Assembly (NCBI RefSeq): GCF_988242995.1
Contig: NZ_OZ547043.1
DNA length: 64,000 nucleotides
Strand: one strand, 5' to 3'
Below are positions 3,101-47,429 of the stretch, in pieces. A program made the translations under genes and the position numbers. Positions within the stretch are counted from its first letter, which is position 1, and each line of letters opens with the position of its first letter. The notes under the pieces were generated by a model that had not been told where the DNA came from, made no database searches, and was given only the letters and a program-made list of their open reading frames with translations.

Positions 3101-3967
3101 TCACTTTCCAATTAATTGAAATAAATATTGACCATACTGTGTTTTCTCCATAATCCTGGCCTCAGTCAGGACCTGCTCCGCAGTCAGCCATTTATTGCGC
3201 AAAGCTATTTCTTCTAAGCAAGCAACTTTATATCCTTGACGCTTTTCGATAGTATGAACAAATTGAGAAGCTTCAATAAGGCTATCATGTGTTCCCGTAT
3301 CCAACCAAGCGAACCCCCTTCCCAAGAGTTCTACATTAAGCATATCCCGCTCAAGATACATTTTATTTATTGAAGTGATTTCAAGCTCACCACGAGGAGA
3401 TGGTTTAACTTGCTTTGCAAAATCCACCACCTGATTATCATAGAAATAGAGTCCAGTTATGGCCCAATTAGATTTTGGTGTTTGTGGCTTCTCTTCGACA
3501 GAGAGCACCTTAAATGATTCGTCAAATTCTACAATGCCAAATCGTTCAGGATCCATAACCTGATAGCCAAAAACTGTAGCTCCTCTTTTTCTGGAAGCCA
3601 CCTGTTCCAGTTTGCGACCGAAACTTTGACCGAAGAAAATATTATCCCCTAAAACCAGGGCACATTCATCACCAGCGATGAACTCTTCACCAATAATAAA
3701 AGCCTGCGCCAACCCATCAGGACTTGGTTGAATAGCATATTGAAGGTTAATTCCAAACCGGGATCCGTCTCCTAGCAGGCGTTTATACGATGATAAGTCC
3801 TCGGGAGTAGAAATAAGAAGTATATCTTTTATCCCTGCCAGCATTAATACTGAAATAGGGTAATATACCATTGGCTTATCATAAATAGGTAGGAGCTGTT
3901 TTGATACCCCTCGAGTAATCGGATAAAGTCGGGTACCAGAACCTCCCGCTAATATAATTCCTTTCAT
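3101..3967 (-). CDS. rmlA: Glucose-1-phosphate thymidylyltransferase
   Basis: 288 aa; [46 protein letters not shown] is the RmlA/RfbA nucleotidyltransferase signature. Confidence 0.85.
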
Positions 3968-4111
3968 TGCTTACCTTCTCTATATAATCTTCAAATATTA
4001 TCGCATTAACTTTTAAGTAAATTTTAAAAATGCAGTGCAATAAACATTCAGTTTAAATAAGCTTGACATTAGAAATATCTCCAGCTTATTTACTTGTATT
4101 AAATGTCACAT

Positions 4112-4642
4112 TTAATCTAATTTTTTTAGGTATGTCGCTGGAGTGCCGCCTACTAATTCCTTTTCACCGACATCTTTTAGAACTACAGAATTTGCTGCAA
4201 CTATAGCTCCATTGTTAATAACAATAGGTCCCAAAATAACAGATCCAGTGGCCAATATAACATCGTTGCCAATAACAGGACGAAGTTCCTTGTTATATTT
4301 CATATCAAGTGTTTTTGCACCAATAGTGACATTTTGATATATAGTGCAGTTTTCACCTATACGCGCCGCACCGATAACTATGCCAAAGGTATGTGGTATG
4401 AAAAGTCCACCTTTAATCTCACATTCAGTTGCGATCTCAATGTTAAAAATGAGGACGTTTAAAAGTGAACAACATTTTGATATTCTTCTGAATCCTTTTT
4501 CTTTTAAAGAATAGGATGTCCTATATATTACATTGGGAATCAAACGAGGGCTAAAAATTCTAAAATAGTCTTTAAATTTAAAAGCAGATTCATTCCCAAT
4601 CAATTCTTTATATCTTTGAATATCTTGTTGTATATTTTTCAT
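4112..4642 (-). CDS. Hexapeptide-repeat O-acetyltransferase (CysE/LacA/WbbJ-like)
   Basis: 176 aa; left-handed beta-helix hexapeptide repeats (IGAARIGENCTIYQNVTIGAK, IGNDVILATGSVILGPIVINNGAIVAANSVV). Confidence 0.7.
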   Translation of the reverse strand: MKNIQQDIQRYKELIGNESAFKFKDYFRIFSPRLIPNVIYRTSYSLKEKGFRRISKCCSLLNVLIFNIEIATECEIKGGLFIPHTFGIVIGAARIGENCTIYQNVTIGAKTLDMKYNKELRPVIGNDVILATGSVILGPIVINNGAIVAANSVVLKDVGEKELVGGTPATYLKKLD

Positions 4643-5699
4643 TTTTTATTCCTGCGTATCCTGCTAAAAACACCAGATATAGCCAAAACATAGGGAAAAG
4701 GAAGGTTAGTTTAAGGCAGGGGAGCAGGCATAATAACATCAATCTAAGTGAGAATCGTGAATATTTTAGGAACAATACCAGCCATGATACACTAAGGATA
4801 CTGCCTAACCAAAAGCCAAAAACGATGAAATTACTTCCGAATAACGTCATATCAAAAAGAGACTGAAAATAGTCTGGTGCATTGTCATAATACCCAACCA
4901 TACCGTGGCCAATATTAAAAACAAGAGGGCTATCAAAGAATGATTTCATCAACTCAAGTTTATATGATGTGCTACCATCACTACCAGATGAAATATAAGA
5001 CATACGCCACATAATGTTTTGATATATTATCGGAGAAACCAGTACTAACGATATTAACCCGGTTGCGATCCACTTTAGTGTCAATCTACAGGTAAGAATA
5101 AAAAATAACATAACGCAGATAACAGAGAAAGTCGAACCGGATAACACCATACACATTAATGCTATATAACTTAGTAATGAGTTATTATTAGCTACAATAT
5201 ACCTCATCACTAATAATGTGACCATATGTATAGAGAAAATACTCGGTTCGGCAAATACTCCTGTTGCTCTGTAATCGAAACCGTCATAACTGCTACGGTG
5301 TGGAGGACCTAACAAGAACTTCCCATAATCGATATCCACATTAATGATTTTGAAAGCTAAATACTGCAACAGGAAAGTAAAAATGTGAAACTTGATGCAA
5401 AAATCGATCACCTTAAGCCAGTCACAGCTTTTAATTCTTTTTACACAATAGCTATAGATTGATGGTACTGTCAATGCATAAAAGCAGCATACCAAAGTAA
5501 AAATAAATATTTTATCCACTACGCCAAAGAATACATGAAAAATAAGCGATGTGAACGATACCAGAATAAATATCAACCCTTGCGATGAAACCTTACATTT
5601 ACCCTGTATAAACACCAGAAAAAAAACGCAAAACTGAATAATAAAAAAAACCGGACTAAAAATGAAAAGAGTACCAAAAAGAAAATATATATTAGCCAT
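4608..5699 (-). CDS. wzy: O-antigen polymerase
   Basis: 363-aa very hydrophobic, AT-rich, multi-spanning membrane protein with a large internal loop, located in an O-antigen cluster; no close sequence recognised, as is typical for Wzy. Confidence 0.55.
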   Translation of the reverse strand: MANIYFLFGTLFIFSPVFFIIQFCVFFLVFIQGKCKVSSQGLIFILVSFTSLIFHVFFGVVDKIFIFTLVCCFYALTVPSIYSYCVKRIKSCDWLKVIDFCIKFHIFTFLLQYLAFKIINVDIDYGKFLLGPPHRSSYDGFDYRATGVFAEPSIFSIHMVTLLVMRYIVANNNSLLSYIALMCMVLSGSTFSVICVMLFFILTCRLTLKWIATGLISLVLVSPIIYQNIMWRMSYISSGSDGSTSYKLELMKSFFDSPLVFNIGHGMVGYYDNAPDYFQSLFDMTLFGSNFIVFGFWLGSILSVSWLVLFLKYSRFSLRLMLLCLLPCLKLTFLFPMFWLYLVFLAGYAGIKNEKYTTRYSKI

Positions 5700-6669
5700 T
5701 TCTTTCCCTTTTTGAATAACCCTCTATATAATACATAGCCAAGACTAACTTGTAAAATATTGCTCTGATTTTAAATTTATTCCTATTGTCTAACTTATTA
5801 AGAACAACCCTTACAAATTTATTAAGTTTAATACTATTAGCGCAAGACAAAGCTACTCTAAGCACAGTTGACTTCATACTACCTTTCCGCTCAGCCTGGG
5901 GAAATAGCAATTTATCTACAATTTCAGGATGTTTCTTAACCAAAAGCGGTACTGAGTACCTTGCATAAGGAATCATTCTTTCACATGCCCTATCGAGGGT
6001 AGGGGTGTCGTTATCGTAGAGTAAAGCATCGCTACAAAAGAAAAACGGAACAGAGCTTAAACGAAGCCGCGCCCCAAATTCTTCATCCTCACAACCATAA
6101 TGCCGGAATGATTCATCGAACCCTTTCTGTGCTTCAAACTCGGATTTGCTAATCAGGAAAGCATCGCTTGCAAAGTAGCGATACTCAATTTTAACAGTTC
6201 CTTTATATCTATTCCCCAAATATCGGGAGTCAAAGTAGTGTAGGTAATTGCTGTCGCGGGTTAAATCTTGCCGACATCTGACATTAGCCCTTGCTACAAA
6301 AGGCTTCTCGCAGGACAAAATCATTGAATGCAGGCTATCAAGACAACCTTGCTGGAGCAAATTGTCTATGTCGACAAAAAATAACCATTCATTGCTTGCT
6401 GATTTCGCAGCTCTATTTCGAGAAAAGGCGCGACCTTCATTTATTTCATTACGTAAGAACACTAACCGCCATTCGCGCTCATTAAATTTTTCAGAAAAGG
6501 CAATAGTTGTGTCTTCCAAATTCACCTCAGAACCGTCATCGATGATGATAAGTTCAATATTCTTTAGTATATTCTTTTGTCCATGAGTATTAGCGAGCAG
6601 AGCTGAGATGAAAGTTTCTACTTTTGATGAGCTACCGAGAACAGGGCTAATAATGCTAATCATTTGCAC
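5692..6669 (-). CDS. Family 2 glycosyltransferase
   Basis: 325 aa; N-terminal ISIISPVLGSS...ELIIIDDGS matches the GT-A nucleotide-sugar binding and DxD region. Confidence 0.75.
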   Translation of the reverse strand: MQMISIISPVLGSSSKVETFISALLANTHGQKNILKNIELIIIDDGSEVNLEDTTIAFSEKFNEREWRLVFLRNEINEGRAFSRNRAAKSASNEWLFFVDIDNLLQQGCLDSLHSMILSCEKPFVARANVRCRQDLTRDSNYLHYFDSRYLGNRYKGTVKIEYRYFASDAFLISKSEFEAQKGFDESFRHYGCEDEEFGARLRLSSVPFFFCSDALLYDNDTPTLDRACERMIPYARYSVPLLVKKHPEIVDKLLFPQAERKGSMKSTVLRVALSCANSIKLNKFVRVVLNKLDNRNKFKIRAIFYKLVLAMYYIEGYSKRERNG

Positions 6670-7918
6670 GTTCCATTAAATATTTTTTAGTTACAGTTAA
6701 ATACCAATAGATTGAAACTAATATTGAAAAGAAAAGAGAAATATATAATGCAATAAAGATGCTTGGTATCGGCGCAGTAATAGCAGAGACTTTCAATGCG
6801 CTATAGATGCTCAGACATAATAAAAATACAAGACACCATTTAATGGTGTAATAGTAGTAACTCTTTGATGCAAGGTTAGCTGCGTTGATCAAATTATCGA
6901 CAGCAAAAAATGGCAACAAAAAGACCAGAATATTATAATAATTTGCCGATGTGACATAGTCATGGCCGAAAACAAATGTAAAGATATATGGTGTAAATGG
7001 CTTTAACGAAAATGAGAATAACGAAAAAGCAGTAAACATTATTATGGATAAGACAATAAGATTTCTGTTGAAAATTTTCCACTTCTTGTTTTTGTATAAA
7101 AGGATGGGGGCCAAAACCTGTATCAATATTAAGGTTACTGAAGCTGTATTCTCATTAATCTGTGATGCAGCACTATATATACCATAATCAACTGGTGAAA
7201 TGTTACCTTTCAGTAAGAATCTGTCAATTTTCATAAATAATGCATAGGCTACAACCCCTCCCCAGATGAAAAAACTGCGTTTTAACAGGAAGCCTATATC
7301 ATTTAGTCTAACAAGACTTATTCTGGGGAACTTACAAATTGAACAACAGTACATGACTATCGCAACAAAAATGCCCTCCAGTACCCATGGCAATGCAAGG
7401 AACTTGATATCGAAATTTATCACTATAAATAAGTAATATAGTGTTAGTATCCTGATAATGCAGCCAAAGATCTGGATGATACCTGAGAGGTATAATTTCC
7501 CTTCAGATTGCCATTTTGCAAAGCCTACCATCAATGGCTCTCGTGCCAAGAGAGTAACGGACGAAAATAGCAAGTAATACCTTACAATCTCACTTTCAGC
7601 TGTAATTGCGAGGATTACACTGACAGTAGCGACTAATGATGATACAGATAATCTTGCAAAAAAAATTGTATTACAATAAATCAATTTCTTGCGTAATGAA
7701 TAGCGCGATAACTGAGGGACAACTGATTCTGACCCGCACATCCAAGTTAGTGACATTAAAATATTTGAAAAAGTAAATGCATATTGCCAAATGCCAAACT
7801 GCTCAATTGGAAGCGCTTTTGAGATAAGATGGTTAGCATAAATAGCACTAATAATCTGTACAAATCGCTCAAACAACAGGACAAGCAATCCCGCAATAAT
7901 TGATTTATTCACGAACAC
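6656..7918 (-). CDS. wzx: O-antigen flippase
   Basis: 420-aa polytopic membrane protein (about 12 hydrophobic segments) of the polysaccharide-transporter type, located in the O-antigen cluster. Confidence 0.7.
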   Translation of the reverse strand: MFVNKSIIAGLLVLLFERFVQIISAIYANHLISKALPIEQFGIWQYAFTFSNILMSLTWMCGSESVVPQLSRYSLRKKLIYCNTIFFARLSVSSLVATVSVILAITAESEIVRYYLLFSSVTLLAREPLMVGFAKWQSEGKLYLSGIIQIFGCIIRILTLYYLFIVINFDIKFLALPWVLEGIFVAIVMYCCSICKFPRISLVRLNDIGFLLKRSFFIWGGVVAYALFMKIDRFLLKGNISPVDYGIYSAASQINENTASVTLILIQVLAPILLYKNKKWKIFNRNLIVLSIIMFTAFSLFSFSLKPFTPYIFTFVFGHDYVTSANYYNILVFLLPFFAVDNLINAANLASKSYYYYTIKWCLVFLLCLSIYSALKVSAITAPIPSIFIALYISLFFSILVSIYWYLTVTKKYLMERAND

Positions 7919-8903
7919 CTTCCGGTGAGATTATTTTTTTCACCCATTGCTGTAAAGAATATTGTTCTCTATTTTTGTAATTAACATTCGGTGCGTTAAT
8001 AAAATTCTCAGGTACTATGACCTGATGTCTTTTTACTACGCAGATCATATTAGGGTCATAAAAATCGTACTTTTTTATGTCTTCATTCGTGGTAATAATT
8101 TTTTTATTTAACCCGATGCATTCTATTGTTCGCATTGTCAGACCGCGCTGCCTTGGATGATGAATATCGATGATAATTTCAGAGCACTTCATCATTTCAA
8201 CAACTTCAGATTGTGATAATGGTTCAAATTCTACGTCTGTATTTATTTTTTTTCCGCTTAATAAATTCTTCAGTTTAAAAATAATTTCATTCTGAAAATA
8301 AAAGAATGTATAAGCATTAATGTCTTTAATATTTCTTACTTCAGCAGTAATGCAATTGACCAAATCAACGCGATCTGAATGAGCTGTACCGATAAAACAA
8401 AGATCGTATTTTAGCGAATGCTCATGCTTATTGTCAAAACGCGGCGAATAAAACAGCGGAAGAAATGTTACTCCCCATTTTTCAGCATCATCACGTTCAA
8501 AGGTGAAAACCGAATCAAACTGATTTATTATTCTTTTAACTTTGGGTTTGTTATTGACCGAATCCCACAAATACATAATGAATTTACAGTGTTCATTTTT
8601 TACTTTAACGGTTTTTTTTATGGCCTGTAAAATTTCATGATCAATTGCTTCAGGATTTAAAATAAATACATTATCGATTTTTTTGTTGACAATTTGCCGT
8701 AGTAATTTTTTATAATAACTTGAGTTATACTTTTTAATCAAAATACTACAACCTAACCTTAGCAATGATTTATAAATAGCATTATTGCTCGGCCGCTCAT
8801 CCCAATAGATAACGTCATTAGTTAATTCTAATTCTTTGACTATTTCTTTTTCATAATTAAAAAACTTGGGAGAAATAAACAATACTGTATTTTTGTACCC
8901 CAT
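7905..8903 (-). CDS. Hypothetical protein, candidate glycosyltransferase of unrecognised family
   Basis: 332-aa soluble ORF, AT-rich, overlaps wzx start by 14 nt (operonic). No motif I can assign; context suggests the second sugar transferase of the O-unit. Confidence 0.45.
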   Translation of the reverse strand: MGYKNTVLFISPKFFNYEKEIVKELELTNDVIYWDERPSNNAIYKSLLRLGCSILIKKYNSSYYKKLLRQIVNKKIDNVFILNPEAIDHEILQAIKKTVKVKNEHCKFIMYLWDSVNNKPKVKRIINQFDSVFTFERDDAEKWGVTFLPLFYSPRFDNKHEHSLKYDLCFIGTAHSDRVDLVNCITAEVRNIKDINAYTFFYFQNEIIFKLKNLLSGKKINTDVEFEPLSQSEVVEMMKCSEIIIDIHHPRQRGLTMRTIECIGLNKKIITTNEDIKKYDFYDPNMICVVKRHQVIVPENFINAPNVNYKNREQYSLQQWVKKIISPEGVRE

Positions 8904-8904
8904 T

Positions 8905-9720
8905 TTATCTTCCCTGAGATTTTTTGAATTCTTTTATCATATCCACTAAATCATTCAATACATTTTTATAATGATGTGGGACTATTGAGTTAGTTTTTTG
9001 CATCGTGATAACAGGAAATGTTTCGCATGTATCATTCTTGTGCCACTGTATATTACAACCTGTTTCAGATATTAAAATGTCAGCGATGGATTTTGCTGAA
9101 ACATTATATCCAGATGCAATGTTATAAATATCTCCGGGTGAAGTTATAGATTCTGCTAGCTTATACATGACGGCAACCACATCATCTACCGATACATAAT
9201 CCTTCTCGTAGTCAGAGCTAACATACATATCGACATGATTGTTATTGATTGCATTTTTTATTATTTGCGGAAGGAATAACGGGCTATTTAGTGCGAGTCC
9301 ATAAACATTTGATGGTCGGACGACCACAACGTTCTTTTTACTTCTTAGACATAACTCTTCAGCAACCAATTTTGTCAAATTGAAAAGCTTGCGACCATCA
9401 TTGTGACAAATTTTTAGATCTGAATTTTCTGCAGAATCTCTGGAGTTCAAATATACACGAGTGGAAGAAATGTAGACTAATTTCTGGAAATTAGCTTGTG
9501 TAAGTATTACTTTTAGCTTATTGACATTTGCATCCACAACATTATAGGCATCACTTTTGCAATCGCCATAGCCTGCGCAATAAAAGACGGTACCAAGGTC
9601 AATTTCTTTGTTATAAAGATAGTCTCTGTCAGGGCAGAAACATTCTTTATTCATTGATTCTAAAAATGTTACCATATGTGAACCAATGAAACCTGAACTA
9701 CCAACGACTGTATACTTCAT
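8905..9720 (-). CDS. NAD(P)-dependent sugar epimerase/reductase (SDR family), candidate dTDP-4-keto-6-deoxyhexose 4-reductase
   Basis: 271 aa; N-terminal Rossmann motif VVGSSGFIGSHMV; lies between the rmlC-like gene and the orphan ORF; does not resemble canonical RmlD. Confidence 0.55.
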   Translation of the reverse strand: MKYTVVGSSGFIGSHMVTFLESMNKECFCPDRDYLYNKEIDLGTVFYCAGYGDCKSDAYNVVDANVNKLKVILTQANFQKLVYISSTRVYLNSRDSAENSDLKICHNDGRKLFNLTKLVAEELCLRSKKNVVVVRPSNVYGLALNSPLFLPQIIKNAINNNHVDMYVSSDYEKDYVSVDDVVAVMYKLAESITSPGDIYNIASGYNVSAKSIADILISETGCNIQWHKNDTCETFPVITMQKTNSIVPHHYKNVLNDLVDMIKEFKKSQGR

Positions 9721-9782
9721 AATACTATAGCCTTTTGCTCTATGTATTAATAATGACAGGAAGCTAATTTAAACTGTTATGC

Positions 9783-10325
9783 TTATAAGCTAGCTTCTTT
9801 AAATTCTGAAAAACTAATTAACGCGTTGTCTTTAGATGACATAATTGGCATGTCTATCGGCCATTGTATATTCAGTTCTTTGTCATTCCAGATTATCCCC
9901 CCTTCATCGGTAGGATCATAGAAGTCTGTGCATTTGTAATGGAAATCCGCATACTCACTTAATACACAAAAACCATGTGCAAATCCAGGTGGGATATAGA
10001 TTTGATTATTTTTATCCCCAGAAAGTATAACACCTACATGCTTTCCAAAAGACGAAGATCCAGGTCTTAAATCAACAGCCACATCAAAAACTTCTCCACT
10101 GATGACACTTACTAATTTACCTTGAGGATTATTTTTTTGAAAATGTAAACCTCGAAGCACATTTCTTGCTGAGCGTGATCGATTATCTTGTACAAATGCC
10201 TCAGTTATTCCTATGTCGTGATATTTCTTCTGATGCCATGCTTCCAAAAAGAAACCACGAGAGTCACCAAAGACTTTTGGCTCAATGATTACACAACCAG
10301 CAAGTGGAGTCTCAATTACCTTCAT
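9783..10325 (-). CDS. rmlC: dTDP-4-dehydrorhamnose 3,5-epimerase family protein
   Basis: 180 aa; cupin-fold RmlC motifs EPKVFGDSRGFF, NVLRGLHFQ, GFAHGF. Confidence 0.8.
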   Translation of the reverse strand: MKVIETPLAGCVIIEPKVFGDSRGFFLEAWHQKKYHDIGITEAFVQDNRSRSARNVLRGLHFQKNNPQGKLVSVISGEVFDVAVDLRPGSSSFGKHVGVILSGDKNNQIYIPPGFAHGFCVLSEYADFHYKCTDFYDPTDEGGIIWNDKELNIQWPIDMPIMSSKDNALISFSEFKEASL

Positions 10326-10396
10326 AATTATAAACCTTGTATTATATTTTTTAAATTTGCTAATTTTTGATACAATTTAGCTACCTTTATCAGTTA

Positions 10397-11479
10397 CTAA
10401 CGCATCTTGTAGTTCTGCTCAATCCAGGTTTGGTACGCCCCACTTTTGATATTTTCAACCCATGAGGTGTTTGCCAGATACCATTCAACCGTTTTGCGAA
10501 TCCCACTTTCGAACGTCTCTTGCGGTTTCCAACCGAGCTCACGGCTGATTTTATCCGCATCGATCGCGTATCGACGGTCATGGCCTGGACGATCGGCAAC
10601 ATAGGTGATTTGTTCACGGTATGACACTGCTTTAGGTACGATCTCATCCAGCAGGTCGCAGATGGTATGTACAACATCGAGATTTTTCTTCTCGTTATGG
10701 CCACCGATGTTGTAGGTCTCACCAGGGATTCCTTTCGTCACCACGGTATATAACGCACGGGCATGGTCTTCAACATAGAGCCAGTCGCGAATCTGATCGC
10801 CTTTACCATAAATGGGTAACGATTTCCCTTCGAGAGCATTGAGAATAACCAAGGGAATCAACTTTTCAGGGAAATGGTATGGGCCATAGTTATTCGAACA
10901 GTTGGTCACCATTGTTGGAAGACCGTATGTACGCAGCCAGGCACGAACGAGATGGTCGCTGGAGGCTTTTGAAGCCGAATAAGGACTACTCGGCGCATAG
11001 GCGGTTTGTTCCGTGAAGAGAGGAAGAATACTCCCCTGCGCAACCTCATCCGGATGCGGTAAATCCCCATAAACTTCATCAGTAGAGATGTGATGGAAGC
11101 GGAATGTCGCCTTTCGCGCACTATCCAGTGAGGACCAGTATTGACGGGCTGTTTCTAAAAGAACATAAGTACCCACAATATTCGTTTCAATAAATGCAGC
11201 AGGGCCTGTAATTGAACGGTCAACATGGCTTTCAGCAGCCAGGTGCATCACTGCATCCGGCTGATGCTGAGAAAAAATTCGCGCCATTGCAGCAGCATCG
11301 CAAATATCCGCATGTTCAAAAACATAGCGTTCAGAATCAGAAACATCAGCAAGTGATTCCAGGTTTCCGGCGTACGTTAATTTATCGACATTAACAACAC
11401 TATCCTGCGTATTATTTATAATGTGACGAACTACAGCAGAACCAATAAATCCTGCGCCACCAGTAACAAGTATCTTCAC
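10397..11479 (-). CDS. rmlB: dTDP-glucose 4,6-dehydratase
   Basis: 360 aa; [43 protein letters not shown] matches RmlB/RfbB almost residue-for-residue. Confidence 0.92.
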
Positions 11480-11553
11480 TTATTTATTCCATATAACTTC
11501 AGAGCATGCTGTGAAATAAGCGGCTCTTAGGTTGATTAATAGAGGTGTTAATG

Positions 11554-11592
11554 CACGCTACCGCCCCTGGCTTTACAGCTACCAGAGCACTA
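11554..11592 (-). promoter_or_regulatory. JUMPstart element with ops site (RfaH-dependent antitermination) upstream of the O-antigen operon
   Basis: Minus-strand reading is cagtgctctggtagctgtaaagccaggggcGGCGGTAGCGTG; the ops core GGCGGTAGCGTG is the reverse complement of 11554-11565. Confidence 0.8.
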
Positions 11593-11850
11593 CATGCATG
11601 TCTACGATGTGACGAGCGTTACCCACTCGCGCTAAACCCGAAAAATTCAAACGCTAATTGTCTTACCAATCCGCTCTGGAAACAAGGAAAATCCTGGAAA
11701 ACTTTGACTAAAATCCTATTGCTAACTCGTTGTTATTCTGATTGTTTATATAAAACAACGGCAGGAATATTCGCAACAAATTACTTTCGCCACGAATCTT
11801 CACTGTCGTTATAATTTTCTTATCAACCGTTACATCCGGTCAGATTTTCA

Positions 11851-12744
11851 TTATTCGCTTAACAGCTTCTCAATCCCTTTACGGAACTTCGCCCCTTCTT
11901 TGAGGTTGCGTAGTCCATACTTCACAAATGCCTGCATATAACCCATTTTTTTACCGCAGTCGTAACTGTCCCCAGTCATCAGCATGGCATCAACGGACTG
12001 TTTTTTCGCCAGCTCGGCAATAGCATCAGTCAGCTGAATACGTCCCCATGCACCAGGCTGAGTACGTTCCAGTTCCGGCCAAATATCGGCAGAAAGCACA
12101 TAGCGACCAACGGCCATGATGTCTGAGTCCAGCGTCTGCGGCTGATCCGGTTTTTCGATAAATTCGACGATGCGGCTGACTTTACCTTCACGATCCAGTG
12201 GTTCTTTGGTCTGAATGACGGAGTATTCAGAGAGGTCACCCGGCATACGTTTTGCCAGCACCTGGCTGCGGCCCGTTTCATTGAAGCGCGCAATCATGGC
12301 AGCAAGGTTGTAGCGCAGCGGGTCGGCACTGGCGTCGTCGATCACAACGTCCGGCAATACCACAACAAATGGGTTGTCACCAATGGCGGGTCGTGCACAC
12401 AAAATGGAGTGGCCTAAACCTAAAGGTTCGCCCTGACGCACGTTCATAATGGTCACGCCCGGCGGACAGATGGACTGTACTTCCGCCAGCAGCTGACGCT
12501 TCACGCGCAGTTCAAGGAGAGATTCTAATTCATAAGAGGTGTCGAAGTGGTTTTCGACCGCGTTTTTGGACGCGTGAGTTACCAGGAGGATTTCTTTGAT
12601 CCCTGCAGCCACAATCTCGTCAACAATGTACTGAATCATTGGCTTGTCGACGATCGGTAGCATCTCTTTGGGAATCGCCTTAGTAGCAGGCAACATATGC
12701 ATCCCTAGACCCGCTACAGGAATAACTGCTTTTAAATTCGTCAT
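11851..12744 (-). CDS. galF: UTP-glucose-1-phosphate uridylyltransferase-like regulatory subunit
   Basis: ORF track gives 11851-12756; conserved GalF N-terminus [44 protein letters not shown] starts at the internal Met (12744). Confidence 0.9.
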
Positions 12745-12918
12745 TATTTCATCCACCTGTAAAATGGTTGCTGAATTATAGCTTGTTCGATTTTTTTCGC
12801 CAGCATCAATTACCCTGAATTGATTACTGAATTACTTGTGATGTTACGCCGCTTCGTTGTGGATTGCAGTAGCATTGTTCCTAAGTATGGCTCCATTTTT
12901 CCAGGAATGGTCGCAAAT

Positions 12919-14313
12919 CTACTCCCTCCGTTCCGGCAATCTAAAGTTAATCTTTTCCACATTAACAATATGGTGATTTATCCTGTCGATATCGACGGAG
13001 CTTTGCCCTCTTTCATTCACCGCATGAACATTTGCAAGAGATAGCAGTGTTTCTTTTTTCGCCATAAAGACGCCGCGAACGTCTTTGCGCATGTCAAAGT
13101 TCATGCTCAATGCTGGTCCAACAGAGGATTTCTGCATCACCTTGATATTACGCATAAAAAGGTGTTGCGGTTTATTGTGTAGCTCAAGCGAGGCACGCTT
13201 CATCTCAATGTTAGTCAGTGCCACAAAGGAGACAGCATTCCCGGCGGAGATTTGGATGCCGCGCAATTTATAAGCAAGGTGAGTGTTATCCAGTTGAATA
13301 TTATTCACTCGGAAATTTTGCGGTATCGAGAGATATTTGCCTTTAATTACCCCATAGCCAATTAACATCCCGGCGCTATTAATCATTTCAATATTATCAA
13401 TCACGAATTTGTCACAACCGTAAATAGCGACTGTGGCGTTATCAATGCCTGCTTTCTTACTGAAATCCGGCGTGATATTGCGGGCTTTGATATTACGAAT
13501 AACAAAATGTTTACCATTTTCAACATGTATCAACTGCCGACAATCCGATCCCGTGATATTCGCCACGACAAAGTTTTTCACTGCCTGATCTTCCGGGTAA
13601 TTATTATCGTAAGTGCTTCCCGCAAGGCCTATGCCAATGCCCCAGTTGATTTTGCCGTTAGTACAGTTGATGCGCTCGATGACATGGTCGGAGATCAAAA
13701 TATCACTGTCGTTAATTGCCACGTTCCATTCAATGGCGTCGCCCTGTAAGTCGCTGAACTTACAGTTGGTGATGTTGGCACCGATTATCTGGTTATGAAA
13801 TCCCTGGCGTAAGATGGCGTAATTAGCGTGGCTAACGGTCAGGTTATCGATGGTCAGGTTGCGCATGACCCGTTTGTTTTTGCCGCCGATATAAATCTGC
13901 GTTACCGGACCAAAGCCGCTCATCGCCAGCCCTTTGATGGTGCAGTCAGAGCCGCGCACATCCAGGGTGATGTTATGCATACTGCCGCCCTCCTCCCCTG
14001 TCACCTGGCTGCCGTCCTGTAAGATAAATCGCCCTCTGCCGTTGCCGCGCAGGCTTCCAAGGATGTGTAACGTTTTACCTGCAGGAATGAAGATGCCGGT
14101 GTTGATATTGTCGCAAACCAATCCGGCAGGCACGACGACCGTTTGCCCTTCGCTGAAGGCTTGTTTAAATGAGGCGATCCAGTCGTGAGGGTTGTAGTCG
14201 TTAATGTTAACGCTTTGTCGGGCGGGAAGTGCGCGAGCGAAAGGGGTATGGAGGAAGGCAAGGGCCGAGCTTGCCGTCAGGAAGGTGCGTCGGGAGAGTT
14301 TTTTAAATGGCAT
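12919..14313 (-). CDS. wcaM: Colanic acid biosynthesis protein WcaM
   Basis: 464 aa; [28 protein letters not shown] is an RR-type signal peptide; position and length fit WcaM. Confidence 0.9.
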
Positions 14314-14323
14314 ACGTTCTCCT

Positions 14324-15544
14324 CTATAAAGCCTGCAACAAGCTGGCGAGTTCTCGATTAATCACCTGCTGGTTAAAATCGTGTTCGACTTTTTCGCGAG
14401 CACGTTTGATAACCGGAGCCAGTTCGTTGGTGTCCAGTTGGCTAAATGCCGCCAGGCGTTGCGCCAGTGCGCGAGCATCGTTCTCAGGCACCAGCCAGCC
14501 GGATTTATCGGCCTCAACCAGTTCTGGTATTCCGCTATGCAGAGTTGAAACAACCGGAATGCCGACCGCCATTGCTTCCATTAGCGCCACCGGAATACCT
14601 TCCATATCACCATCCGCACCTGTAACCGATGGCAACAGGAAGACATCCGCGTCGTCGAGCATCGCTTTCACTTCATGGCTCGGTTTAAAGCCCGGCATCT
14701 CCACCACATCTTCCAGTTGATATTGTTCGATGAGGGTACGCAGGCGTCGTTCCCACGGGCCAATGCCGAGGATGCGATAGCGAAATGCCATGCCCTGCTC
14801 TTTCAACTGACGGCAGGCTTCGATCGCCACATGCAGGCCTTTTTTTTCAGTTAAGCGTGCGACGGAGATGATTTCCAGCGGCGTTGCGGGCGCTTTCACC
14901 GGACGCGGGCTAAAGCGCGTCATGTCCACGCCCATACGCGATACGGCGATTTTTTCTCTGGGGCAGCCCATTTTTTGCAGCCTTCCGGCCCACAAATCGC
15001 TTATCGGTAACATCAGGTCGCCACGGCGAAACAGTTGCTGATATTCGGGAGTGTAATGGTTGAGCACTTCCCGACTGGAAATATCAATGCCGTGGAAAAT
15101 AGTGGCAATTTTGCCGCGAATGACACCCAGTTCGCGTAGTTTTGCTGCGGTTACCCCCGCCGGGCCAAAATGAGCGATGAACACATCGGCGCGAAACGGT
15201 GTTGCGACCTGGCCGCAAATGGCAGACAAAATCAGGTTCCGCGACTCGGCACCATAGCGTTTGAGGTTGAGCGCCTGCCAGGTATTTTTACGATGAATGC
15301 CGCGCAAGGTCTGACTGGCGCGGTGGCGCAGCTTCGCCACTTTGCCCGTAGGTTCGTCCTGTAACCATCGGGTTCTGGCGGCAAGGTTGTATTTCGTCCA
15401 TGCCGCGTGGGTGTTTTGTGTGTCGCCTTTTTGCAGCGCGACAATCTCCACCTCAAAGCCCATATCAATAAACGCGGTAATTTGGTTGAGGACGAAGGTT
15501 TCCGACGACAGCGGAAATTTCAGTAAAAAGAAGCCAACCTTCAT
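14324..15544 (-). CDS. wcaL: Colanic acid glycosyltransferase WcaL (GT4)
   Basis: 406 aa; [22 protein letters not shown] start; stop overlaps the wcaK start. Confidence 0.9.
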
Positions 15545-16821
15545 TTCGCCTCCCCAATGCGTTCCAGTACGGACTGCACCATCTGCATTCCTGTCTGACG
15601 CTCACGACTGACGGCTTCGCTAAGTCGTGCGTTCAGCGCCGGAAGCTGGCCTAAGGTATCCGCAACCATCGCTTGCAGGCTGCCGTCCAGTAAATGACGG
15701 ATATCAATCGCCATCTCCGGTAGTCCCAACTGCTGCATAATCCCGGCGGATTTATGTTCATAGTTGATGGCAATCGCCGGAGTAGCAAAGTTCATTGAGA
15801 TAATGGCGGAGTGCAGGCGCGTACCGACGGTGAGTTCACAGGCCCCCAGAATTTTGCCCATTTCCAGATCGTTGAGTTCATCCATCACTACGTGATAACG
15901 GGCAGGATCGCTGATGTGCTGGCGTAGGTTGAGCGCCACCATTCGGTCGTCTTTGTTATAGCTGTCGATGCCCGTACAGGTGGATAGCGCAATCACCTGA
16001 TACCCTTCGTCGAGAATGCGATTGACCACCCCGGCAAAGGCTTTTTCATACGCTTGTTGAGTGGTGCCGAGACGTTTGTCGAACGGTGCCAGTTCGCGCA
16101 GGGTAATTGCCACCGTTTTCTGTTGTGCGGCAACGTCCAGCCAGTGTTGGACGGCATAGCTGGCGGTGAAATCTTCTGTGTGGTGATCGACCAGCCACGC
16201 GGTATCGACGCCATCTTCCACTTTTGCAGTGGTGATATTGCTGCGTTTCATCAGTTCGAGACTGACCGATTCGCGCAGGATCAGCGCGTTACAGTGACCA
16301 AAAACGTAGTTCGCCAGTTGGTTAAATTGCTCATCCTGGAAGGGACCGACGCTGTGACCAATCATAAACAGCGGCTTTTTCGCCATAAATGTGCAAAGCG
16401 CATGTTCAAACTGCGGCACGCCGTAGAGATCGACAAAAAACGATCCGCCGACCTGAATAATGGCGTCGTAACCTGACAGCAGGCGCACGAAGTCGGTGAA
16501 TCCCTGGGCGATGGCGATATTACGCAGCTTGCCAGTGTCAGTGACGCGTGAGAGCAATACCTGGTGTTGATAGCGGCGACGGAGGACTTTTTTAACGCGC
16601 CCGACAACGCCCGCCGCGCTGTTGTGTTGTTTCATTTGCAGGAACAGCGGATCGCCCATTACCGGGCGGTTGAGCAGCCAGGAAGAACTGACCGGATAGC
16701 GGCTCATCACGTCCACTTCGGCTTGTGGATTGAGGATGTTGATGGCATCAAGTAAGCCGCGCAAGATGGCGCTGTCGCCACGATTGCCGCAAGTGTGGTT
16801 GCCCAGAATAAGTAATTTCAT
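15541..16821 (-). CDS. wcaK: Colanic acid pyruvyl transferase WcaK
   Basis: 426 aa; MKLLILGNHTCGNRGDSAILRGLLDAI start; polysaccharide pyruvyl-transferase family. Confidence 0.9.
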   Translation of the reverse strand: MKLLILGNHTCGNRGDSAILRGLLDAINILNPQAEVDVMSRYPVSSSWLLNRPVMGDPLFLQMKQHNSAAGVVGRVKKVLRRRYQHQVLLSRVTDTGKLRNIAIAQGFTDFVRLLSGYDAIIQVGGSFFVDLYGVPQFEHALCTFMAKKPLFMIGHSVGPFQDEQFNQLANYVFGHCNALILRESVSLELMKRSNITTAKVEDGVDTAWLVDHHTEDFTASYAVQHWLDVAAQQKTVAITLRELAPFDKRLGTTQQAYEKAFAGVVNRILDEGYQVIALSTCTGIDSYNKDDRMVALNLRQHISDPARYHVVMDELNDLEMGKILGACELTVGTRLHSAIISMNFATPAIAINYEHKSAGIMQQLGLPEMAIDIRHLLDGSLQAMVADTLGQLPALNARLSEAVSRERQTGMQMVQSVLERIGEAK

Positions 16822-23108: not shown

Positions 23109-24332
23109 TTATCCCCGAATATCATTTATAAATTGACGTAACACGTTCTCTTTATCGAGCGTGCGTTCGGCATATTCACGTGCCACCGTGTTGTGTTTGG
23201 GCAGCAGGAGCGCCTGACGGATCCCCGCCACCAGCGCCTCGACCGATTCCGGTTCTACGCAAACCGCAATGCCCGGAAAGGTTTCGCAAAGCTGCCCCAG
23301 TTCTGTGTGGGCTTCTGCGGTAATCACCGCGTTACCGCCTACCGCCAGAATATTGGTCAGTTTCGACGGCAATACGGCATCTGCCGCGCCGCGTTTTTGC
23401 ACCACCAGATGGCAATCGCCCATCTTCAGCAGTGCGGGTAAAGCGTCATACGATTGCAGCGGGAAAAATTGCATGTTGCGCAGTCCACGCTGCTGCGCCA
23501 TTTTTTCCAGCCGCGCTTTGCCGCCGCCTTGCCCGACAATGGCAAAAATCAGCGGTTCATCGCGCAGGCGATCGGCAGCTTCAATAACGTTTTCCAGCCC
23601 CTGCTTTTCACCAATATTGCCGGAGTAAAGAATGATTTTTTTGTTATCCGGCAGGCCAAGCTGGTTACGAAGGGCATCAACATCGGCATCTGCAACATGC
23701 TGAAAACGGGCAATTTCCGACCAGTTGGGGAAGAAAATGACGTTTTCCGCCGCCACGCCTTTTTCGATGGCTTTATTCATCATCGAACGCGAAATCGTGG
23801 AGACGTTATCGACGTTATGCAATCCGCTACGTTCGAACGCCGTTGCCAGCTGTGCCACTTTGCCGCCTTTGCCTTTTCCGGCAAGGCCCAGCCCCAGCAT
23901 GGCGTCCACTTCGTAATCCTGAATATGCAGCACGGTACGCGCACCAGAGAGTTTCGCCAGCAGGCGCATTCCCGGCGTGCAAAACAGCGTTGGCACCACG
24001 CCGATAATGCGATCCGGCTTCCAGCGACGTTGCGCCATCAGAGGAAAGAAACTGCTGACGGCAAAACTGCTGAGATGTAACAGGCGTTTCAGGGTGCTCG
24101 GCTGTTTTGGCACGTACAGCGGGCAGCGCCACACCGTGGCGGCCCCCTCTTCTCGTTTGTAGCGCCAGGCGGAATAGTTCTCGCCCACCTGCCACTGCGG
24201 GTAGTAAGGCGGTGCGGTAATAACCCGCACCTCATGACCTTGTGCCGCCAGCCATTCCACCATCTCGCCGGTGTATTTGCCGATACCGGTTAACTCCGGC
24301 GAGTAGTTAATGCCGTAGACCAGTATTTTCAT
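23109..24332 (-). CDS. wcaI: Colanic acid glycosyltransferase WcaI (GT4)
   Basis: 407 aa; [39 protein letters not shown]. Confidence 0.9.
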
Positions 24333-25778: not shown

Positions 25779-26900
25779 TTATGACTCCAGCGCGATCGCC
25801 ACGTCGTAGCCGTGAGATTTCAGCAGAGAGTGTTTTTTCGCCGCTTCGAGGTCATTAGCCACCATTTCAGACACCATCTCTCTGAGGGTGATTTCCGGTT
25901 TCCAGCCCAGTTTTTCGTGCGCTTTGGTCGGGTCGCCGAGCAGCGTTTCAACTTCTGCCGGACGGAAGTAACGCGGGTCAACGGCGATAATCACATCGCC
26001 CGGTTTAACGCCCGGCGCGTCATGCCCGGTGACGGAAACCACAATGCCCTTCTCTTCAACGCCCGTGCCTTCAAAGCGCAGTTTGATGCCCAGCTGTGCT
26101 GCCGCCATTTCCACGAACTGACGCACGGAGTACTGAACGCCGGTCGCGATAACGAAATCTTCCGGCTGTTCCTGTTGCAGCATCATCCACTGCATTTTTA
26201 CGTAGTCTTTGGCATGGCCCCAGTCACGCAGGGAATCCATATTGCCGAGGTACAGGCACGACTCCAGCCCCTGGGCGATATTGGCGATTGCGCGGGTGAT
26301 TTTGCGGGTAACGAAGGTTTCGCCGCGGCGCGGGGATTCATGGTTGAAGAGAATACCGTTACAGGCGTACATGCCGTAGGATTCGCGGTAGTTAACGGTG
26401 ATCCAGTAGGCGTACAGTTTGGCGACAGCATACGGAGAGCGTGGGTAGAACGGCGTGGTTTCTTTCTGCGGAATTTCCTGCACCAGACCATACAGTTCAG
26501 AGGTGGAAGCCTGATAGAAACGGGTTTTCTTTTCCAGACCGAGGAAGCGGATCGCCTCGAGCAGGCGCAGCGTACCCATCGCATCGACGTCTGCGGTATA
26601 TTCCGGTGACTCAAAAGAAACCGCAACGTGGCTCATTGCGCCCAGGTTGTAAACTTCATCCGGCTGCACTTCACGCAAAATGCGTGTCAGGTTGGAGGTA
26701 TCACTCAGGTCGCCATAATGCAGATGGAATTTCGGGTTGCAGGTGTGCGGATCCTGATAAATGTGATCCACGCGCTCGGTGTTGAATGACGATGCACGAC
26801 GCTTAATACCATGCACCTCGTAACCTTTTTCCAGCAGAAACTCTGCCAGGTAAGAACCGTCTTGTCCGGTTACACCGGTGATGAGAGCGACTTTTGACAT
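25779..26900 (-). CDS. gmd: GDP-mannose 4,6-dehydratase
   Basis: 373 aa; [48 protein letters not shown]. Confidence 0.95.
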
Positions 26901-36093: not shown

Positions 36094-36132
36094 CACGCTA
36101 CCGCCCCTGGCTTTTTAGCTACCAATACACTG
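36094..36132 (-). promoter_or_regulatory. JUMPstart element with ops site in the colanic acid operon leader
   Basis: Minus-strand reading is cagtgtattggtagctaaaaagccaggggcGGCGGTAGCGTG; near-identical to the O-antigen JUMPstart at 11554-11592. Confidence 0.8.
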
Positions 36133-36572: not shown

Positions 36573-38156
36573 ATGGAATGGATTGCCGATCCGTCTATCT
36601 GGGCCGGGTTAATCACGCTGATTGTGATCGAACTGGTCCTCGGCATTGATAACCTGGTCTTTATTGCCATCCTCGCCGAAAAACTACCGCCGAAGCAGCG
36701 CGACCGCGCACGGGTTACCGGGCTGTTGCTGGCGATGTTAATGCGCCTGTTACTGCTGGCGTCAATCTCCTGGCTGGTCACCCTGACGCAACCGCTGTTC
36801 AGCTTCCGCTCGTTTACCTTTAGCGCCCGCGACTTAATCATGCTGTTTGGTGGTTTCTTCCTGTTGTTCAAAGCCACGATGGAGCTGAACGAACGGCTGG
36901 AAGGGAAAGACAGCAATAATCCCACACAACGCAAAGGTGCGAAGTTCTGGGGGGTGGTGACACAAATTGTGGTACTGGACGCCATCTTCTCTCTCGACTC
37001 AGTGATTACCGCCGTCGGGATGGTCGACCATTTACTGGTCATGATGGCCGCCGTGGTTATCGCTATCAGCCTGATGTTGATGGCCAGCAAGCCGTTAACG
37101 CAATTTGTTAACAGTCACCCGACCATCGTTATTCTCTGCTTAAGCTTCCTGTTGATGATTGGCTTTAGCCTGGTGGCAGAAGGTTTCGGCTTCGTCATTC
37201 CGAAAGGCTACCTGTACGCTGCTATTGGTTTCTCGGTGATGATCGAGGCGCTCAATCAGTTGGCTATCTTTAACCGGCGACGTTTTCTTTCCGCTAACCA
37301 GACGCTGCGCCAGCGGACTACCGAAGCGGTAATGCGCCTGCTTAGCGGGCAAAAAGAAGATGCGGAACTGGACGCCGAAACCGCGTCCATGCTGGTGGAT
37401 CATGGTAACCAGCAGATCTTTAATCCGCAGGAACGGCGGATGATTGAGCGGGTACTTAATCTTAACCAGCGTACCGTCAGCAGCATTATGACGTCGCGCC
37501 ACGATATTGAGCATATCGATCTCAACGCGCCGGAAGAAGAAATCCGCCAGTTACTGGAGCGAAACCAGCATACGCGGCTGGTGGTTACCGACGGTGATGA
37601 CGCAGAAGATTTGCTCGGTGTTGTTCACGTTATCGACCTGCTACAACAGTCACTGCGCGGCGAACCGCTCAACCTGCGGGTGTTGATTCGCCAGCCGCTG
37701 GTGTTCCCGGAAACCTTGCCGTTGTTACCTGCCCTGGAGCAGTTCCGTAATGCCCGCACACACTTTGCTTTTGTGGTGGATGAGTTTGGCTCGGTGGAAG
37801 GGATTGTGACATTAAGTGACGTCACTGAAACCATTGCCGGTAACTTACCGAACGAAGTGGAAGAGATCGACGCCCGCCATGATATTCAGAAGAATGCGGA
37901 CGGTTCCTGGACGGCGAATGGTCATATGCCGCTGGAAGATCTGGTGCAATATGTGCCGTTGCCGCTGGATGAAAAACGTGAATATCACACCATTGCCGGG
38001 CTATTGATGGAATATTTGCAACGTATTCCAAAACCTGGCGAAGAAGTTCAGGTGGGGGATTATTTGCTTAAAACGTTGCAGGTGGAAAGCCATCGCGTGC
38101 AGAAGGTGCAGATTATTCCGCTGCGTAAGGATGGCGAGATGGAGTACGAGGTGTGA
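36573..38156 (+). CDS. yegH: TerC-family integral membrane protein with CBS/CorC domains
   Basis: Conserved start [39 protein letters not shown] at the internal Met (ORF track begins at 36507), giving 527 aa. Confidence 0.85.
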
Positions 38157-46076: not shown

Positions 46077-47429
46077 GTGTTTATTGGTTTTGATTACGGT
46101 ACAGCAAACTGTTCAGTGGCGGTCATGCGCGACGGTAAGCCGCAATTACTGAAAATGGAAAACGACAGCACGCTGCTGCCTTCAATGCTTTGCGCGCCAA
46201 CGCGTGAAGCGGTAAGCGAATGGCTGTACCGCCATCATGATGTTCCGGCAGACGACGATGAAACGCAGGCGCTGTTGCGTCGGGCGATTCGTTATAACCG
46301 CGAAGAAGATATCGATGTTACGGCGAAAAGCGTGCAGTTCGGTCTTTCCTCACTGGCACAGTACATTGATGATCCAGAAGAAGTGTGGTTTGTGAAATCA
46401 CCAAAATCGTTCCTCGGTGCCAGCGGCTTAAAACCGCAGCAGGTAGCGCTGTTTGAGGATCTGGTCTGCGCAATGATGTTGCACATTCGCCAGCAGGCGC
46501 AGGCACAGCTGCCAGAAGCGATTACTCAGGCGGTGATTGGTCGCCCTATCAACTTCCAGGGGCTTGGCGGCGATGAAGCAAACACCCAGGCGCAGGGGAT
46601 TCTGGAACGCGCGGCGAAGCGTGCCGGGTTTAAGGATGTGGTATTCCAGTACGAGCCGGTCGCGGCTGGGCTGGATTACGAAGCCACCTTGCAGGAAGAA
46701 AAACGGGTGCTGGTGGTGGATATCGGCGGTGGTACGACTGACTGTTCATTGCTGCTGATGGGGCCGCAGTGGCGTTCGCGTCTCGATCGTGAAGCCAGCC
46801 TGCTGGGTCACAGTGGTTGCCGTATTGGCGGTAACGATCTGGATATCGCGCTGGCGTTTAAAAACCTGATGCCGTTACTGGGCATGGGTGGCGAAACCGA
46901 AAAAGGCATCGCCCTGCCTATTCTGCCGTGGTGGAATGCGGTTGCCATCAACGACGTTCCTGCACAGAGTGATTTCTACAGTAGTGCCAACGGTCGTCTG
47001 CTTAACGACCTGGTACGCGATGCCCGCGAACCGGAAAAAGTGGCCCTGTTACAGAAAGTCTGGCGTCAGCGTTTAAGCTATCGCCTGGTACGTAGCGCAG
47101 AAGAGAGCAAAATTGCGCTTTCAAGCGTAGCGGAAACCCGCGCCTCACTGCCGTTTATCAGCGATGAACTGGCTACGCTGATTAGCCAGCAAGGGCTGGA
47201 AAGCGCCCTCAGCCAGCCACTGGCGCGGATTCTGGAACAGGTGCAACTGGCGCTGGATAACGCCCAGGAAAAACCGGATGTTATCTATCTGACCGGCGGT
47301 AGCGCCCGTTCACCGCTGATTAAAAAAGCGCTGACAGAACAGTTGCCGGGCATTCCGATTGCAGGTGGCGATGACTTTGGCTCCGTCACCGCCGGGCTCG
47401 CACGCTGGGCGGAAGTGGTGTTTCGTTAA
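46077..47429 (+). CDS. yegD: Hsp70/actin-fold ATPase YegD
   Basis: Conserved N-terminus FIGFDYGTANCSVAVMRDGKP begins at an in-frame GTG (46077), giving 450 aa; ORF track starts at 46014. Confidence 0.85.
   Translation: MFIGFDYGTANCSVAVMRDGKPQLLKMENDSTLLPSMLCAPTREAVSEWLYRHHDVPADDDETQALLRRAIRYNREEDIDVTAKSVQFGLSSLAQYIDDPEEVWFVKSPKSFLGASGLKPQQVALFEDLVCAMMLHIRQQAQAQLPEAITQAVIGRPINFQGLGGDEANTQAQGILERAAKRAGFKDVVFQYEPVAAGLDYEATLQEEKRVLVVDIGGGTTDCSLLLMGPQWRSRLDREASLLGHSGCRIGGNDLDIALAFKNLMPLLGMGGETEKGIALPILPWWNAVAINDVPAQSDFYSSANGRLLNDLVRDAREPEKVALLQKVWRQRLSYRLVRSAEESKIALSSVAETRASLPFISDELATLISQQGLESALSQPLARILEQVQLALDNAQEKPDVIYLTGGSARSPLIKKALTEQLPGIPIAGGDDFGSVTAGLARWAEVVFR

Follow-up and report, generated by a model that had tools for sequence, protein, structure and literature searches.

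A putative Tll-type reductase in place of RmlD in the O45(S88) O-antigen cluster of Escherichia coli, and its probable product dTDP-6-deoxy-L-talose

The window described here, a single 64-kb stretch of DNA (64,000 nucleotides), contains a nine-gene block of low GC content, encoded on the minus strand and flanked by galF (11851-12756) and gnd (1514-2920). GC content is 33-36% within this O-antigen block and 52-56% further along the window. E. coli S88 (NC_011742.1) and 35 other complete genomes carry the 8.6-kb block with 100% identity. The locus has been published as the O-antigen cluster of S88, a meningitis clone of E. coli with the serotype O45:K1:H7; the first description of this ‘O45S88’ cluster of the neonatal meningitis clone is that of Plainvert et al. 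2007 (J Bacteriol 189:8528).

All nine genes of the cluster lie on the minus strand. The first of them is rmlB (rfbB; 10397-11479), which encodes dTDP-glucose 4,6-dehydratase and scores 773 bits on NF007490 and 513 bits on TIGR01181. It is annotated as rfbB in NC_011742.1, and its product has 85-90% amino acid identity to other E. coli RmlB proteins. It is followed by rmlC (rfbC; 9783-10325, matching TIGR01221), for the 180-aa dTDP-4-keto-6-deoxy-D-glucose 3,5-epimerase, and by a gene at 8905-9720 for a 271-aa extended SDR, a putative Tll-type dTDP-6-deoxy-L-lyxo-4-hexulose 4-reductase whose N-terminus begins MKYTVVGSSGFIGSHMV. The coordinates that the first-pass annotation had given span exactly these two open reading frames. 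Then come a WaaS/CpsH-family glycosyltransferase (7905-8903; NF053598, 295 bits), the O-unit flippase gene wzx (6656-7918), which RefSeq names ‘S88 variant O45 family O-antigen flippase’, a GT2-family glycosyltransferase (5692-6669; PF00535, 49 bits), the O-antigen polymerase gene wzy (4608-5699), identified from its RefSeq annotation and its polytopic membrane protein sequence, and a hexapeptide-repeat O-acetyltransferase (4112-4642; PF00132, and NF041874 with 114 bits). The last gene of the cluster, adjoining gnd, is rmlA (rfbA; 3101-3967), for glucose-1-phosphate thymidylyltransferase. Its product scores 504 bits on TIGR01207 (cutoff 360.65) and shares 92.6% amino acid identity with the homologue in a Proteus mirabilis O-locus (our L015).

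A pattern search of the galF-rmlB intergenic region, upstream of rmlB, gives an exact match to the ops element (GGCGGTAG), which is part of the JUMPStart region, at 11558-11565 on the minus strand. The ops element acts in RfaH-dependent antitermination. A scan for promoters and terminators across the cluster gave results no better than those obtained with shuffled sequence.

The products of rmlB, rmlC and rmlA each score above the equivalog cutoffs of their models. For the 180-aa epimerase, the TIGR01221 rmlC model gives 247.6 bits (equivalog cutoff 155.75) and PF00908 gives 232.9 bits (cutoff 27), and comparison with solved RmlC structures returns E-values of 1e-57 for 1dzr and 5e-58 for 6ndr. 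In the printed alignment, the active-site motifs RGLH, QGKLVSV and Y-K-C-T-D of the solved RmlC are identical in the 180-aa protein. Judged on its sequence, this protein is a canonical RmlC.

The 271-aa SDR does not resemble RmlD. It matches PF01370 (Epimerase) with 70 bits and reaches 25.4 bits on PF04321 (RmlD_sub_bind), under the cutoff of 27. The rmlD model TIGR01214 produced no match to it at E ≤ 0.01, in a scan in which RmlB scored 42.9 bits, and BLASTP against RfbD of E. coli K-12 found no significant similarity (E = 2.1). The position of the Tyr in the RmlD-type Thr/Ser-Tyr-Lys triad is occupied by F113, with S86 and K117 present. A tblastn search of the whole 64-kb window with K-12 RfbD returned a single weak match (E = 7e-4; 26415-26720), which falls within an open reading frame at 25779-26900 in the colanic-acid region. 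We take that open reading frame to be Gmd. These searches show that RmlD is absent from the 64-kb window. The first-pass annotation had described a cluster with rmlB, rmlA and an RmlC-family epimerase, no RmlD, and in its place an SDR unlike RmlD; the model scores and the RfbD search bear out the gene content, while the profile and BLASTP results, together with the separate clade in the tree described below, agree with it on the SDR.

We searched 5.8 billion proteins with the S88 SDR and obtained 498 homologues at E ≤ 1e-5. Nearly all of those listed have lengths of 263-280 aa, and they bear no functional names; they come from Proteus (78% identity), Morganella, Buttiauxella, Enterobacter, Cedecea, Cronobacter, Aeromonas (52% identity), Vibrio, Shewanella and relatives. 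An exhaustive HMMER search gave 156 clusters, at the 50% identity level, with E ≤ 1e-30. Distant members of the family (33-39% identity) adjoin RmlC-like epimerases, 4,6-dehydratases, and C- and O-methyltransferases, and their position beside RmlC-like epimerases fits a 4-ketoreductase role after epimerisation. Pasteurellaceae do not appear among the best 120 of the 498 homologues listed for the S88 SDR, nor among the matches listed in a second search with a 270-aa relative (P0123) as query; the clusters of 20 family representatives come from Vibrio, Enterobacter, Acinetobacter, Niastella and Bacteriovoracaceae only, again with no Pasteurellaceae.

Within E. coli, a distant blastn search located homologues of the SDR in four other O-loci. 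Immediately after rfbC there is a 272-aa SDR in O45 (strain RM13752; 49% identity to the S88 SDR), a 277-aa SDR in O66 (NCTC9066; 52%) and a 270-aa SDR in O109 (58%), and the fourth homologue, with 46% identity, belongs to an untyped O-locus of strain 1916D18. No rfbD was found in any of these four clusters, and there is no second candidate 4-reductase in the S88, O66 or O109 clusters. The only other SDR of the O45 cluster is a 314-aa protein that adjoins a WbpM-like dehydratase and an MraY-family initiating transferase, that is, the D-FucNAc genes. Overall, the SDR is encoded together with rmlB, rmlA and rmlC in S88, O45, O66, O109, 1916D18, the Proteus locus L015 and the loci L013, L016 and L019. 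The SDR family does not always replace RmlD, since in the related locus L016/L017 an RmlD-like gene coexists with a member of the family. We also considered a role in the UDP-L-RhaNAc3NAc pathway for the O109 homologue, whose gene comes after that of a PF02719 dehydratase. This was rejected as the main reading on the grounds that O109 has rfbB and rfbA, lacks rfbD and carries the same glycosyltransferase/acetyltransferase cassette.

In a neighbour-joining tree of 29 sugar-nucleotide SDRs (100 bootstraps), the S88 SDR belongs to a clade of 13 members with 100% bootstrap support, among them the O45, O66 and O109 proteins. This clade is nested in the ~270-aa family with 84% support, and K-12 RfbD pairs with the RmlD-like protein of L017, apart from the S88 SDR clade. 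A phylogeny of this type had been proposed in the first-pass annotation, and in it the SDR does not cluster within canonical RmlD. The AlphaFold model of the SDR (pLDDT 88) has an extended-SDR fold; its closest solved structures are GalE-type 4-epimerases, RMD and RmlB, and RmlD is not among its top 50 structural neighbours.

The chemistry of the polysaccharides made by related clusters points to the function of the SDR. The O45 and O66 O-antigens contain 6-deoxy-L-talose (6dTal) and no rhamnose, and the O45 O-antigen carries 6dTal2Ac. The Enterobacter cloacae O16 cluster encodes products with 84-97% identity to those encoded by the E. coli O45 cluster, and there the 819-bp gene after rmlC, the counterpart of the O45 gene, has been published as ‘tll’; its product shares 56% identity with Tll (ABX39499.1) of Aeromonas AH-3 (O34). 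In Haemophilus parainfluenzae strain 30, Tll has 270 aa, the same length as in Aggregatibacter actinomycetemcomitans, and is 87% identical to D11S_1703 of that species; the RmlD of strain 30 has 294 aa. Tll is reported to act on dTDP-6-deoxy-L-lyxo-4-hexulose, reducing its C4 to give the talo epimer (Nakano et al. 2000). The 271 aa of the S88 SDR match the ~270 aa of Tll and are distinct from the length of RmlD. We infer from this that the SDR is a Tll-type reductase, its tie to the assayed A. actinomycetemcomitans Tll running through published annotations and protein length. The cell very probably makes dTDP-6-deoxy-L-talose in place of L-rhamnose, with the Tll-type reductase replacing RmlD.

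We are therefore confident, though short of certain, that rmlB, rmlA and rmlC together with the Tll-type SDR make dTDP-6-deoxy-L-talose in the O45(S88) cluster; in the account that follows, the stereochemistry, the cofactor and the roles of the transferases are deduced. RmlA would make dTDP-glucose, which RmlB would dehydrate to dTDP-4-keto-6-deoxy-D-glucose, and RmlC would epimerise this at C3 and C5 to give dTDP-6-deoxy-L-lyxo-4-hexulose. [quoted passage not shown] The WaaS/CpsH-type glycosyltransferase probably places 6dTal on WecA-primed GlcNAc-PP-undecaprenol, glucose is probably added by the GT2 enzyme, and 6dTal is probably O-acetylated by the hexapeptide acetyltransferase. The finished O-unit would be flipped by Wzx and polymerised by Wzy.

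The assignments of the neighbouring enzymes draw on comparison between clusters. Every SDR-bearing E. coli cluster compared (O45, O66, O109 and 1916D18) has a homologue of the WaaS/CpsH-type glycosyltransferase, with 34-47% identity, and the K-12 rhamnose cluster has none. Because of this co-occurrence with the SDR and its absence from K-12, the WaaS/CpsH-family enzyme is the likely candidate for the 6-deoxy-L-talosyltransferase. The GT2 enzyme, 38% identical to a glycosyltransferase of the O45 cluster, is probably a glucosyltransferase, with a presumed donor and acceptor. The hexapeptide O-acetyltransferase is 42% identical to its O45 homologue and 51% identical to its O109 homologue, and is a candidate 6dTal 2-O-acetyltransferase, with 6dTal as its presumed substrate. 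Two glycosyltransferases and one O-acetyltransferase, with no FucNAc genes, fit a WecA-initiated trisaccharide unit, Glc-6dTal(OAc)-GlcNAc. Such a unit reportedly matches the structure that Jann et al. 1995 described as ‘O45rel’, which is presumably tied to S88-type strains.

Four of these genes, namely rmlC and those for the SDR, a WaaS/CpsH-like glycosyltransferase of ~330 aa and a hexapeptide acetyltransferase of ~176 aa, recur widely as a cassette. It is present in S88, O45 and O109, in an O-locus of Proteus mirabilis and in several metagenomic contigs, either complete or, on short contigs, in part. The Proteus mirabilis O-locus is collinear with the block from rmlC to rmlA, with 77% nucleotide identity.

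The SDR differs from canonical members of its superfamily at the active site. F113 aligns with residue 145 of PDB 8rdi, the Y145F mutant of Pyrococcus horikoshii Gal4E, and K117 aligns with the triad Lys of the same structure, so that the canonical YxxxK reads FxxxK in the S88 SDR; the dinucleotide-binding GxxGxxG motif is intact. Phe stands in for the canonical SDR catalytic Tyr throughout the Tll-like clade (S86-F113-K117), which also has a clade-specific Tyr171 and Arg88. The clade with Phe includes the proteins of E. coli O45, O66, O109 and S88 and homologues from Aeromonas, Vibrio, Shewanella, Enterobacter and Proteus. Each of the 243 homologues with 40% identity or more has the same S86, F113, K117, R88 and Y171 (243/243), whereas 80 of the 142 relatives at 30-40% identity have S-Y-K with S171. 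Such invariance indicates strong purifying selection on these five residues. We found no mention of the Tyr-to-Phe replacement in the Tll clade in the literature that we searched.

Since the SDR lacks the canonical Tyr, textbook SDR chemistry cannot be assumed for it. The Phe form must nevertheless be active, given that this Phe is also present in the enzymes of O45 and O66 and that 6dTal is a component of both O-antigens. One speculative explanation, which we think rather unlikely as it stands, is that the Tll clade consists of atypical SDR ketoreductases in which the catalytic acid has been relocated, with Tyr171 or an Arg88/Ser86/water relay as the proton donor. By comparison with GalE and RmlB, position 171 would be close to the diphosphate-binding Arg/Lys and not to C4. 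If the catalytic acid has indeed been relocated, the rearrangement could set talo rather than manno stereochemistry.

The first-pass annotation had left the product as either dTDP-6-deoxy-L-talose or the outcome of a divergent rhamnose pathway. In the latter, the SDR would be a non-orthologous replacement for RmlD that converts the same 4-keto intermediate to dTDP-L-rhamnose. In its favour, the substrate would be shared, sequence alone does not fix the face of hydride delivery, and the coexistence with an RmlD-like gene in L016/L017 can be taken to mean that the products need not be mutually exclusive. That same coexistence, seen also in A. actinomycetemcomitans serotype c, argues more for a different product than for redundancy; moreover, the O45 and O66 homologues sit in clusters whose O-antigens have 6dTal and no L-Rha, and the rhamnose-containing O16 antigen of K-12 is made with RfbD, in a cluster without a homologue of either the SDR or its glycosyltransferase. 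We consider dTDP-L-rhamnose a very unlikely product. The talose half of the earlier statement stands, supported by the clade with the O45 and O66 SDRs and by the orthologue published as tll, and the divergent rhamnose half found no support.

A different sugar could arise at the preceding step if the RmlC-like protein epimerised one centre, or if the SDR used another intermediate, so as to give a sugar of the 6-deoxy-allose or 6-deoxy-altrose type. Mono-epimerases with the RmlC fold do exist, and NovW and GDP-heptose 3-epimerases are among the weaker PDB matches of the 180-aa protein, but the mono-epimerases score 1e-22 to 1e-29 where authentic RmlC gives 1e-57, and the rmlC equivalog score of 247.6 bits is above its cutoff of 155.75. 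Likewise, distant SDR members do occur in C-/O-methyltransferase clusters that make other sugars, but the nearest relatives of the S88 SDR belong to 6dTal-containing serogroups, and such a product seems to us more improbable still. The least credible reading is that the SDR is catalytically dead, or is itself an epimerase, and that the reductase is encoded elsewhere. The loss of the YxxxK Tyr, at the position mutated in Y145F Gal4E, and the 4-epimerases at the top of the list of structural neighbours would be in keeping with this, yet the five invariant residues and the intact GxxGxxG motif speak against it; a dTDP-L-Rha 4-epimerase route would require RmlD, which is absent from the window, and the S88, O66 and O109 clusters offer no other candidate 4-reductase.

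With dTDP-6-deoxy-L-talose as the preferred product, the arrangement follows the standard rmlBAC+tll route. Gene logic, sugar, cluster, serogroup and enzyme family have all been published, and none of them is new. The O45(S88) O-antigen has been reported as a key virulence determinant of the neonatal-meningitis E. coli clone, in a review citing Plainvert 2007. Its distinctive sugar, probably 6-deoxy-L-talose made through a putative Tll-type reductase, bears on serotyping and on glycoconjugate design, and a Tll-type enzyme represents a pathway step without a mammalian counterpart. The invariant Tyr-to-Phe replacement across the Tll clade is the only element perhaps worth follow-up, as it raises a question about protonation of the C4 oxygen and about stereochemistry.

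A functional counterpart is RmlD (RfbD), with which the SDR presumably shares its substrate, its NAD(P)H-dependent 4-ketoreduction and its position in the pathway, and with which it has a shortened Rossmann domain in common. RmlD differs in its length (299 aa against 271 aa), falls in a separate clade and would act with the opposite C4 stereochemistry, and in the SDR the triad Tyr is replaced by Phe. The dTDP-L-rhamnose 4-epimerases Tle and WbiB, which provide the other route to dTDP-6dTal, share the extended SDR fold and the end product. However, they need dTDP-L-Rha made by RmlD and the canonical S-Y-K triad, whereas the S88 window is without RmlD and the SDR is without the triad Tyr; in Tle, Y181 is required.

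The known Tll systems, in A. actinomycetemcomitans, Aeromonas AH-3 (O34), E. cloacae O16 and E. coli O45/O66, are closer. Here as there, an extended SDR of ~270 aa, not RmlD-like, is partnered with rmlB, rmlA and rmlC, and genes annotated as tll occur in clusters for 6dTal-containing polysaccharides. The A. actinomycetemcomitans tll lies alongside rmlD in an ABC-transporter cluster, whereas in S88 the SDR is the sole 4-reductase of a Wzx/Wzy cluster. Compared with the O45 reference (RM13752), S88 lacks the D-FucNAc genes, i.e. the WbpM-like dehydratase, the 314-aa SDR and the MraY-family initiating transferase, and outside rmlB, rmlC and rmlA the proteins of the two clusters are 25-49% identical, with no match found for wzy. 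The two clusters nevertheless share rmlB, rmlC, the Tll-type SDR, the WaaS/CpsH-like glycosyltransferase, the GT2 enzyme, the hexapeptide O-acetyltransferase and rmlA, a common gene set that fits a common Glc-6dTal2Ac epitope and the serological typing of S88 as O45.

The SDR encoded at 8905-9720 of the window, a 271-aa putative reductase of the Tll type, carries an FNxxK motif where a canonical SDR has YxxxK. When the protein is aligned with PDB 8rdi, a mutant of Pyrococcus horikoshii Gal4E, F113 pairs with the Y145F position. In our alignment of its homologues (A1), the residues of note are S86, R88, F113, K117 and Y171. Every one of the 243 homologues that are at least 40% identical shows S-F-K, R88 and Y171 in A1, and most relatives at 30-40% identity have S-Y-K with S171.

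The gene for this SDR belongs to a recurrent cassette, in which rmlC and the gene for a Tll-like SDR are accompanied by genes for a WaaS/CpsH-like glycosyltransferase (~330 aa) and a hexapeptide O-acetyltransferase (~176 aa). In the window it occupies 4112-4642 (the O-acetyltransferase) and 7905-10325 (the other three genes), and it also occurs, whole or in part on short contigs, in the compared loci L003, L005, L013, L015, L016, L019 and L020. Its distribution takes in E. coli O45, O109 and S88, Proteus and metagenomic contigs. The cassette is probably a portable ‘O-acetyl-6-deoxytalose’ module. Since the E. coli O109 cluster (L005/L010, NZ_CP180632.1) has rfbB, rfbA and rfbC with a Tll-like SDR and lacks rfbD, we predict that O109 would contain 6-deoxy-L-talose, or another product of its Tll-like reductase. 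For the diamino sugar of O109, the cluster also encodes a PF02719 dehydratase and two aminotransferases of the DegT type.

From rmlC to rmlA, positions 3113-10338 of the window are collinear with 8379-15622 of the O-antigen locus L015 on Proteus mirabilis contig DBDLHC010000009.1. The gene order is identical in the two, with a nucleotide identity of 76.7% and amino-acid identities of 73-93%. The rmlB of the window is typical of E. coli, being 85-90% identical to other E. coli RmlB, and the Proteus block has no counterpart of it. Taken together, these sequence comparisons suggest that the cluster is a mosaic with an ancestry in common with an O-locus of Proteus or Morganella. Over the central O-antigen genes (4001-10000) the GC content falls to 33-36%, compared with 43-47% on the two flanks (rmlB and rmlA) and 52-57% across the colanic-acid region, as is usual for O-antigen clusters gained by lateral transfer. 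The ops-like octamer GGCGGTAG has six exact matches in the window vs 1.5 expected by chance: at 11558-11565 (-), the galF-rmlB JUMPStart position, and at 23339-23346 (-), 36098-36105 (-), 36684-36691 (-), 47295-47302 (+) and 61985-61992 (+).

A further family member, of 270 aa and 47% identical, is encoded in a gammaproteobacterial capsule or O-locus (L016/L017, 9001-16360), where it occurs together with rmlA, rmlC, rmlB and an RmlD-like gene of 296 aa. The arrangement, tll plus rmlD, is the same as the one described in serotype c of A. actinomycetemcomitans.
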